Source of the DNA: a virus | Taxonomy: Duplodnaviria > Heunggongvirae > Uroviricota > Caudoviricetes | Length of the DNA: 5,747 nt | Strand: one strand, 5' to 3' | Virus record (IMG/VR): IMGVR_UViG_2617270951_000013 | Shown: piece by piece, positions 714-2,155 of the stretch | Layout of the letters: each line of letters begins with the position of its first letter | Position numbering within the stretch: position 1 is the first letter of the stretch | Notes under the pieces: generated by a model | Told to the model about the DNA's origin: nothing | Databases searched by the model: none | Seen by the model: the letters and a program-made list of their open reading frames with translations, nothing else | Position numbers and translations under genes: made by a program

Positions 714-1451
714 TCATTCACTCTCTTTCAAACCAGTTTTAACTGTTTGTGGTTTTGGGTAAGGCTGGACTTTGAATAGCTTTGTGTTAAGGCGTTTTCT
801 GGCTCTCTTGTCCAGAAACCGGATGTAACGAAACTGACGGAATTTATGAACACTGGCTCTGTCGATATTAGCCCGCAGATGTTCACCTCGCTGTCCTCCT
901 CGTTTGATTGCATTCTTGCAAATCTCGTGATACCACTCGCCATCAAGTTCATAGAATGTTGTTTCATGACTGCCTACATAATCAAAATTGCTTGCCTGGT
1001 ACACGACACCAAGACAGCCACAACGCTCATCTGCAAACGACTGAACCCACTGCACCTGCGGATAAAGTTGTCTGATTAGTTTGAGCGCGTAACTGATTGC
1101 CCTTGATTCGGAGTTTCTCGGCATACAGTCATGCAGCCATAACCGGTTAAGCTCCATATATTCGCGGTTCTGCGTGCCAGTTACGACGCGTGCACCATTG
1201 TTTGGATTAAGGGCATAACCCCATTGCATTACGCCAACCAGCTCCCGTTCTGAAAATATGCCCAGATGAAGGTAGGAATTATTTACGAAACGATGGCTGT
1301 AATGTTTATTGACGACGACCAGCCGGGCCAGCCAGCAACTTATTGTCTCAACCCGTAACTCACGGGAGCCATAACCGACGATATTGTCGTTATAGTGAAT
1401 AAGTTCAGGCGTGCTGATGATACGGGATGTAACTTGCTTTCTGTTCCCCAC
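714..1451 (-). CDS. mom: Mom-like DNA modification enzyme (phage Mu Mom family, adenine-modifying anti-restriction function); start codon uncertain
   Basis: Long minus-strand ORF ending at TGA (716..714) whose 5' end overlaps the 3' end of a Com-like zinc-finger gene in another frame, as in Mu com-mom. The only in-frame ATG upstream (1613) would overlap all of com, so the proposed start is GTG 1451..1449, preceded by AAGGA (1466..1462). The track ORF 714..1646 is an over-extension. Confidence 0.6.
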
Positions 1452-1605
1452 GACAGGATTTCCTTGTGTATGTGGGGTGCTCTGTGGCGCTCTGAGATGT
1501 GATTTGATTGAGGGTTTTACAGCGCGGACATTTAACTTCCAGATAACTGAAGCTGGCTCGTGCCAGTAGCTTGTTACAATGTCGGCACCGTATGTTTCGA
1601 TACAT
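1405..1605 (-). CDS. com: Com-like zinc-finger translational activator of mom (66 aa)
   Basis: ATG 1605..1603 preceded by GGAGG (1620..1616). Product [14 protein letters not shown]...VKCPRCK has a CxxC-15 residues-CxxC zinc-finger at residues 7/10/26/29 and an EHPT motif, both recalled from Mu Com. Its stop (1407..1405) lies inside the mom frame. Confidence 0.75.
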
Positions 1606-1648
1606 GGCCGCATAACCTCCTGCTTTGTTGTTGATATCTTTATCACTC

Positions 1649-1673
1649 AATCGATCGACAAAAACGATCGATT
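1649..1673. promoter_or_regulatory. Perfect 9-bp inverted repeat AATCGATCG / CGATCGATT (7-bp spacer), each arm containing a GATC Dam site; candidate methylation-sensitive operator or promoter element for com-mom
   Basis: Arms at 1649-1657 and 1665-1673; GATC at 1653-1656 and 1666-1669, with a third GATC at 1735-1738. The repeat sits about 45-70 bp upstream of the com ATG on the transcribed side. Confidence 0.4.
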
Positions 1674-1861
1674 TGATTTATTTAATTGATACAACAAATA
1701 ACACGAAATGTCATTAGCGAAAATTTATGAGTTTGATCACTAATTTTAAACGGTGCTGTAACGCATAAGTGCTGAATGATTGTACATTTGAATACCGCAA
1801 AGCAAACAAATCAACTAATTTATAGAAGTCAATTGGTTAATTGCCAGCGTAAGAGGCTGCT

Positions 1862-2155
1862 ATGGACAATCATGTAACGACGAGAAATCGAAAAATGATT
1901 GAAAATGCGGAAATCTATAATGATTATTTTTCCGATTATTCAGATGCCTGCAAATACAGTTCGAGTGCGGGAGAGTTCATATGCTTCAACTTTTTTATTA
2001 AATCTTATGTTTTTCCTCCACAGCAAGAAGATGGAGGTGTGCCACCTCCTGAAATCACTTTGCACCGTATAGCCTCCGTCTCAATGATGGAGCAACAGGC
2101 TAATGAGCTGTATAGCATTCTGGGAACGATTCTACAAAAGCGTGAATCGGACTAA
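1862..2155 (+). CDS. Hypothetical 97-aa protein (orphan ORF in AT-rich island), divergent from com-mom
   Basis: ATG 1862 preceded by AAGAGG (1851-1856) with a 5-nt spacer; a 291-nt open frame in markedly AT-rich DNA where stops are frequent; TAA stop at 2153-2155. No recognisable motif. Confidence 0.4.
   Translation: MDNHVTTRNRKMIENAEIYNDYFSDYSDACKYSSSAGEFICFNFFIKSYVFPPQQEDGGVPPPEITLHRIASVSMMEQQANELYSILGTILQKRESD

Follow-up and report, generated by a model that had tools for sequence, protein, structure and literature searches.

A palindrome carrying two Dam sites upstream of com-mom in a Mu-like Escherichia coli prophage is the probable core of a Dam-methylation-sensitive OxyR operator

Control of the phage Mu promoter Pmom by Dam and OxyR is well established (PMC3378877; PMC2909390). 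In the Mu sequence (AF083977, locus L003 of our set), the three GATCs are found at 2160, 2178 and 2191, ahead of com, whose ATG is at 2269; 2194-2260 is annotated as the late promoter, gin and com are adjacent, the GATC cluster adjoins gin, and the operator precedes both the binding dyad of the C activator and the promoter. The agn43 (flu) gene, which controls a host-type adhesin, is likewise an established Dam/OxyR switch (PMC13337833), with heritable ON/OFF switching as a shown feature and an operator that sits at or just after the promoter. At P22 gtr, a GATC pair with 13-bp spacing makes up each proven OxyR half-site, and OxyR no longer binds once the DNA is methylated; GATC3 and GATC4 are at -46 and -33 (PMC2909390), and the promoter-proximal pair overlaps the promoter. 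Our literature search found no published work on mom regulation or on unmethylated GATCs in the prophage type described here.

The DNA that we analyzed, a stretch of 5,747 nucleotides referred to below as the window, contains the right end of an E. coli Mu-like prophage; the phage genes run along the minus strand. Its features are as follows.

5652-5080, minus strand: serine recombinase (gin-like)
4994-2940, minus strand: SASA/DUF6645 esterase (acetylesterase)
2807-2613, minus strand: DUF1378
2577-2323, minus strand: DUF826
1862-2155, plus strand: divergent ORF without a family match
1649-1673: perfect 9-bp inverted repeat AATCGATCG-N7-CGATCGATT with two Dam sites 13 bp apart, invariant in this prophage type
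1616-1621, minus strand: Shine-Dalgarno sequence AGGAGG of com, conserved; the com ATG is at 1605-1603
1405-1605, minus strand: com, a 66-aa zinc-ribbon protein, translational activator of mom (Pfam Zn_ribbon_Com, E = 7.5e-13; RefSeq annotation)
714-1451, minus strand: mom, 245 aa, overlapping the 3' end of com (Pfam Mom, E = 7.8e-78; RefSeq annotation)
1-495: prophage end and truncated PTS EIIB gene

Whereas gin and com are neighbors in Mu, about 3.4 kb of other genes separates them in the window, namely the SASA/DUF6645 acetylesterase, DUF1378, DUF826 and the divergent ORF. This last ORF varies among prophage variants and is a 465-bp gene in the prophage at locus L006. The mom frame stays open upstream through all of com as far as a GTG at 1646 (minus strand, 714-1646), giving an ORF of 310 aa that begins 195 nt upstream of the annotated mom start at 1451. 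Among the products of the prophage is one C-like activator (L006 28441-28866), with 39% identity to Mu C. A copy identical to the window is found in strain DLI.5a (L005, NZ_CP103972.1 1239000-1282000), within a prophage remnant of ~10 kb inserted in ypdB; com-mom and the palindrome are intact there despite the loss of most structural genes.

The initial annotation of this DNA had described a perfect 9-bp inverted repeat with a Dam site in each arm, and the plus strand reads exactly so: AATCGATCG at 1649-1657, the 7-nt spacer ACAAAAA at 1658-1664 and CGATCGATT at 1665-1673, with GATCs at 1653-1656 and 1666-1669. Since com is on the minus strand, with its ATG at 1605-1603 and AGGAGG at 1621-1616, the palindrome does lie directly upstream of com, as had been claimed, at a distance of 44-68 nt from the start codon. 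Within this single window, chance is only moderately disfavored as the source of such an element. A perfect 9-bp inverted repeat with a loop of 3-12 nt arose in 17% of 2000 dinucleotide-preserving shuffles of the window, and 6.4% of these shuffles contained two GATCs at a spacing of exactly 13 bp; GATC itself is under-represented in the window (8 observed vs 18.8 expected), and three of the eight, including one at 1735-1738, fall inside 86 bp. The real case against chance is comparative, namely the invariance of GATC-N9-GATC within this prophage type and its recurrence before com in distant enterobacterial lineages with flanks that can no longer be aligned. The window holds a second perfect 9-bp inverted repeat, CTATCCAGC-N11-GCTGGATAG at 2237-2265, between the convergent plus-strand ORF and DUF826, which probably serves as a terminator in both directions; a further terminator-like site is at 2200-2214 on the plus strand.

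We compared the palindrome with the operator of Mu. In Mu, AAATCGATCGgtaatacaGATCGATT contains GATC sites 2 and 3 at a spacing of 13 bp, and the corresponding window sequence is AAATCGATCGtttttgtcGATCGATT; the core AAATCGATCG-N8-GATCGATT and the 13-bp spacing are common to the two, as is the adjacent ATCAATTAAA. Because core and spacing match, the window palindrome is the counterpart of Mu sites 2 and 3, and, like them, it stands immediately before com-mom on the coding strand. The proposed kinship with the Dam-gated GATC cluster of Mu is thus borne out by position as well as by sequence homology. The proposal that a single palindrome distinguishes this locus from Mu is not, as an equivalent palindrome is present at Mu sites 2 and 3, with 8/9 bp per arm and equal spacing. 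A genuine departure is that the GATCs are nearer the start, as had also been proposed: the distance from the proximal GATC to the com ATG is 51 nt, compared with 78 in Mu, so that the pair is 27 bp closer to com. Mu has three clustered GATCs (spacings of 18-19 and 13 bp) and the window two, the position of Mu site 1 reading TATC and lying 22 bp from site 2 instead of 18-19 bp. The Mu order, with the operator upstream of the C-activator dyad and the promoter, is not found in the window, where neither TTAT-N6-ATAA nor ATAACC occurs between the palindrome and com. The C-binding dyad, T6 spacer and TAAGAT -10 element of Mu have no counterpart here, except possibly a TAAAGAT. A stretch downstream of the palindrome, ATT-N5-ATAA, was considered as a remnant of the Mu C dyad and rejected, its spacing being wrong and its sequence not conserved.

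The palindrome also has the form of an OxyR half-site. Positions 1653-1669 read GATCGACAAAAACGATC, which is the GATCG-N7-CGATC form (the ATAGnTnnnAnCTAT variant, with a GATC at each end). The P22 gtr half-sites OxyR(A) and OxyR(C), GATCGgtaacaaCGATC and GATCGcttgtatCGATC, share this GATCG-N7-CGATC form. The agn43 regulatory region, acGATCaatatctattttatcGATCgtttatatcGATCgataagc, has GATC spacings of 19 and 13 bp, its 13-bp pair being spaced as in the window, and its core ATCGATCGTTTATATCGATCGAT is identical to the window's ATCGATCGTTTTTGTCGATCGAT at 21/23 positions, two of the 23 differing. The systems differ in what surrounds this core. The third GATC of agn43, 19 bp upstream at the annotated RNA start, has no counterpart in the window, and agn43 controls an adhesin whereas the operon here serves phage DNA modification. 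P22 gtr has three half-sites 32 bp apart, which offer OxyR two alternative positions, one activating and one repressing, unlike the one GATC pair of the window with a single weak neighboring candidate half-site at 22 bp. Across 169 fetched loci, GATCG-N7-CGATC is all but confined to positions before com and to agn43 and gtr. The one exception lies in a host gene, as GATCGCGTTTATCGATC at L006 39829-39845, inside the coding sequence of dgcP, immediately beyond the prophage; chance may explain it, with ~0.5 such matches expected in the fetched DNA. A scan of viral contigs for TCGATCG-N7-CGATCGA returned at least 120 matches, 17 of them adjoining com, and is uninformative because the remaining matches are scattered in G+C-rich contigs and are mostly chance.

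These comparisons suggest that the palindrome is an element of a known kind, belonging to the class of Dam-sensitive OxyR operators with a shifted position, and that the repressor bound there is most likely host OxyR. The initial annotation had predicted a site for a dimeric, methylation-sensitive repressor. The form of the site agrees with this prediction, matching the half-site for one OxyR dimer at P22 gtr and agn43; the repressor, however, would be the known host OxyR acting as a tetramer. OxyR binds as a tetramer and requires a second half-site. The two predicted half-sites are listed here.

1654-1668, minus strand: predicted OxyR half-site II, ATCG-TTTTTGT-CGAT, by its GATCG-N7-CGATC form (P22 gtr form, agn43 at 21/23, Mu homology)
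1676-1690, minus strand: candidate OxyR half-site I, ATCAATTAAATAAAT, 22 bp upstream of half-site II

Half-site I matches the consensus at 6/10 positions. The composite site 1654-1690 matches 13/20 consensus positions, compared with 13/20 for Mu and 14/20 for agn43, and is tied for the top score in the window with the unrelated 2827-2863 (also 13/20), so that the assignment of half-site I is weak. The block that contains it is conserved in this prophage type and in L090. On the minus strand, gtATCAATTAAa at 1681-1691 has its Mu equivalent at L003 2166-2174. In Mu, ATCAATTAA comprises the last codons and stop codon of gin, next to the GATC cluster; its presence beside the GATC pair of the window is apparently a relic of an old gin-com junction that has since been split by inserted genes. 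The GATC at 1735-1738, which the initial annotation had included as a third site, is present as described but falls outside the conserved element: it stands 66 bp off, past the end of the conserved block near 1700-1713, and is missing from most variants, being found only in the window type and L024.

The conservation of the GATC pair was followed at increasing distance. Matches to the 821-nt stretch 1380-2200 occur in 233 of 5,426 complete E. coli genomes (~4%), many of them O157:H7 or other STEC; most of the 233, many O157:H7 matches included, span only 1380-1700 of the window, which is com plus ~95 bp upstream. GATC-N9-GATC is invariant in all 26 IMG/VR loci of the type and in all five taken from annotated records (four E. 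coli, one phage). An alignment of 11 distinct upstream variants shows no change in the palindrome, in contrast to free variation over the 13 nt immediately downstream of it. Most of the enterobacterial Mu-like lineages sampled have a GATC pair with 13-bp spacing ahead of com, including those of Citrobacter, Salmonella, Edwardsiella, Apirhabdus, Pantoea and Symbiopectobacterium and further Mu-like contigs, with differing spacers and flanks. In distant Mu-like elements that have the pair, Com is 32-67% identical and the flanks no longer align; some of these elements carry Mu-like triplets (18-19 and 13 bp), and others carry the pair close to com. The host of the window prophage, E. coli, has Dam and OxyR, and the retention of the pair in enterobacterial com loci indicates that the GATCs are under selection.

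Three loci depart from this pattern. L052 and L094 keep only an 18-bp pair, the third site being degenerate, and L092 seems to carry a deletion between GATCs; all three would fit decay or deletion of sites. The L092 upstream region (~1100-1200) resembles that of Salmonella L091 with a single GATC, and looks like the product of a deletion between two of three GATCs. The record is titled Vagococcus sp. WN89Y, and an enterobacterial-type Mu-like com in a Vagococcus assembly suggests contamination. The 13-bp pair is absent before com in ~70 loci outside Enterobacterales (Acinetobacter, Methylophaga, Moraxella and others) and absent before mom genes that lack com. Within Enterobacterales, the comparison points to the 13-bp GATC pair as the conserved heart of mom control.

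The mom genes without com (L053-L086) encode Mom homologues 66-70% identical, on contigs of 13-81 kb with no com gene and no GATC cluster; mom is in mid-contig rather than at a phage end, and the elements are apparently not Mu-like. A conserved leader directly precedes the start codon, ~110 nt ahead of the mom match (for instance, L053 1390-1500 and L056 1390-1500). It contains covarying pairs, UA/CG and CG/UA, in GUCACGAGUACACC...UUGGAGUAC and a hairpin of variable sequence, GGCCCGG...CCGGGCC, and it is preceded by a terminator and often by a tRNA-like fragment. It matches no Rfam family at threshold. This leader may be a cis-regulatory RNA that replaces Com.

Taken with the likeness to Mu, agn43 and P22 gtr, the conservation of the pair makes it probable that the palindrome is the core of a Dam-methylation-sensitive OxyR operator that controls com-mom of this Mu-like E. 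coli prophage. The function is assigned by homology, and OxyR binding, the transcription start and the mode of activation are predictions. With a GATC in each arm, the two arms would form the half-site of one OxyR dimer (ATCG-N7-CGAT), and a second half-site, weaker than the first, is probably present at 1676-1690, at a distance of 22 bp upstream. By homology, OxyR would bind when the GATCs are unmethylated or hemimethylated, and bound OxyR would both block RNA polymerase and shield the GATCs from Dam, keeping the toxic Mom function off. Methylation of both GATCs by Dam would exclude OxyR, such that the weak promoter could fire late in lytic growth.

The position of the promoter relative to this operator is constrained by the short distance to com. 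Only 47 nt lie between the proximal GATC and the com ATG, the last 16 of which are the Shine-Dalgarno sequence and its spacer. The operator must therefore overlap the core promoter (-35 or spacer) or fall within the first 30 transcribed nt; put differently, for a transcript to include the ribosome site, the -35 element must be on the palindrome or the promoter must lie wholly upstream of it. Our sigma-70 promoter scan of 1400-2300 passed zero sites on the com strand, so that the promoter cannot be placed from consensus; an empty scan is what a weak and activator-dependent promoter would be expected to give. Two candidates were read from the sequence.

1636-1642, minus strand: candidate weak -10 element TAAAGAT (cf. 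Mu TAAGAT), 10 nt downstream of the proximal GATC
1686-1714, minus strand: alternative promoter candidate, ATGACA (1709-1714), 17 nt, TATCAA (1686-1691), which would place the palindrome at ~+7 to +31

The overlap of GATCs and promoter proposed in the initial annotation is compatible with the 47 nt, which leave room for an overlap with the core promoter, but they also allow a placement in the leader. Overlap is the geometry that we favor, with a confidence that falls a little short of even: the -10 element would be near 1636-1642, the start near 1629, and the GATCs at ~-40 and ~-27. Other relatives with the short architecture have TATACT, TATAGT or TATCAT 7-9 nt after the proximal GATC, which would put their pair at ~-36 and ~-23. 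The stretch that holds the candidate -10 element is the most variable in the type, and reads GAAAGGC in the common STEC variant.

The strongest competing view keeps the same OxyR/Dam operator and moves the promoter upstream, to ATGACA-17-TATCAA with a start near 1679, making the palindrome a block to transcription downstream of the start, as in agn43. We consider this possible, although less probable than overlap. Both hexamers and their 17-nt spacing are kept in all variants of the type, where the stretch after the palindrome varies, and homology between the window type and the STEC type begins at ATGAC. At agn43, the isrC RNA is annotated as starting at the first GATC, so that the agn43 operator is transcribed. 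Against this, TATCAA lacks the near-invariant T at position 6 of a -10 element and fails the scan, and the hexamers are not kept in L090 and L032, which retain the adjacent block together with a strong -10 element downstream of the pair. The string ATCAATTAA, moreover, looks like a relic of the gin stop region, which could account for its conservation.

Should the overlapping geometry be correct, a further and rather speculative step can be considered for the short com-mom architecture that lacks the Mu activator site and promoter spacer, as in this type and its Citrobacter, Salmonella and Edwardsiella relatives. There the OxyR operator would sit on the core promoter, Dam and OxyR would act by direct occlusion of the promoter rather than by gating an activator, and a heritable ON/OFF methylation pattern would be possible, as at agn43 and gtr. 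We hold this extension to be doubtful; if true, Mom-type DNA modification would be phase-variable among lysogens, or independent of a C-type activator.

A different protein could in principle occupy the palindrome, namely a phage-encoded dimer such as the C-like late activator or another prophage regulator, with the GATCs incidental or modulating. In Mu, the dyad bound by C, TTAT-N6-ATAA, is directly next to GATC site 3, and a separate activator site is unrecognizable in this type; in the intact prophage L006, the sequences preceding lys, the protease gene and com have no motif in common. The palindrome, like the conserved block upstream of it, nevertheless occurs only once in the 38-kb prophage and is not found at the other late operons. 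Furthermore, the near-identical agn43 operator and the P22 gtr form have host factors in common, not Mu proteins, and the pair is kept in Mu even though Mu C binds elsewhere. On this balance we judge binding by a phage regulator to be unlikely, and OxyR the better candidate.

It is still less probable that the palindrome acts as RNA, whether as a hairpin in the 5' leader that stabilizes or regulates the com-mom mRNA or as a plus-strand intrinsic terminator against transcription that enters the prophage end antisense to mom. The terminator scan does flag 1649-1673 on the plus strand, followed by TGATTTATTT, and the com strand of 1600-1700 (101 nt) has a folding energy of -22.7 kcal/mol (z = -2.2 vs shuffles), the palindrome forming one hairpin of the fold. 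On the com strand, however, the stem is followed by GAGTGATAAAG rather than by a U-run. An intrinsic terminator has a G+C-rich stem followed directly by a U-run, whereas the stem here contains only 4 G-C pairs and the plus-strand T-run is interrupted. A search of Rfam at gathering and E-value thresholds gave nothing relevant to the palindrome. In L034, L035 and L037, as in Mu, complementarity between the arms does not extend past the self-complementary GATC, yet the GATCs and their 13-bp spacing are kept; because those three loci retain only GATCs and spacing, the constraint appears to be one of protein binding and methylation rather than of an RNA stem. Finally, it is very improbable that the palindrome is a relic without function that decaying prophages have retained together with com-mom. 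Many copies are indeed in degraded prophages, and the commonest variant has lost the putative -10 element to decay, but the pair keeps its spacing in lineages whose Com proteins are 32-67% identical and whose surroundings cannot be aligned, and within the type the pair is invariant beside a freely varying 13-nt stretch.

The conspicuous palindrome of this Mu-like prophage can thus be explained as a predicted OxyR/Dam control site for the toxic anti-restriction function Mom. The earlier interpretation, a methylation-sensitive repressor site that gates com-mom and lies nearer the start than in Mu, appears right in substance and is partly supported by the comparisons made here. While the result opens no new mechanism, it indicates that the distance between operator and promoter varies, with the proximal GATC at ~-56 in Mu vs ~-25 to -27 here, as counted from the predicted start. 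The Mu-like com loci would accordingly offer a natural series for asking how the position of an operator alters Dam/OxyR logic. The two GATCs are expected to be unmethylated in SMRT or nanopore methylomes of lysogens, where such a signal can now be interpreted.
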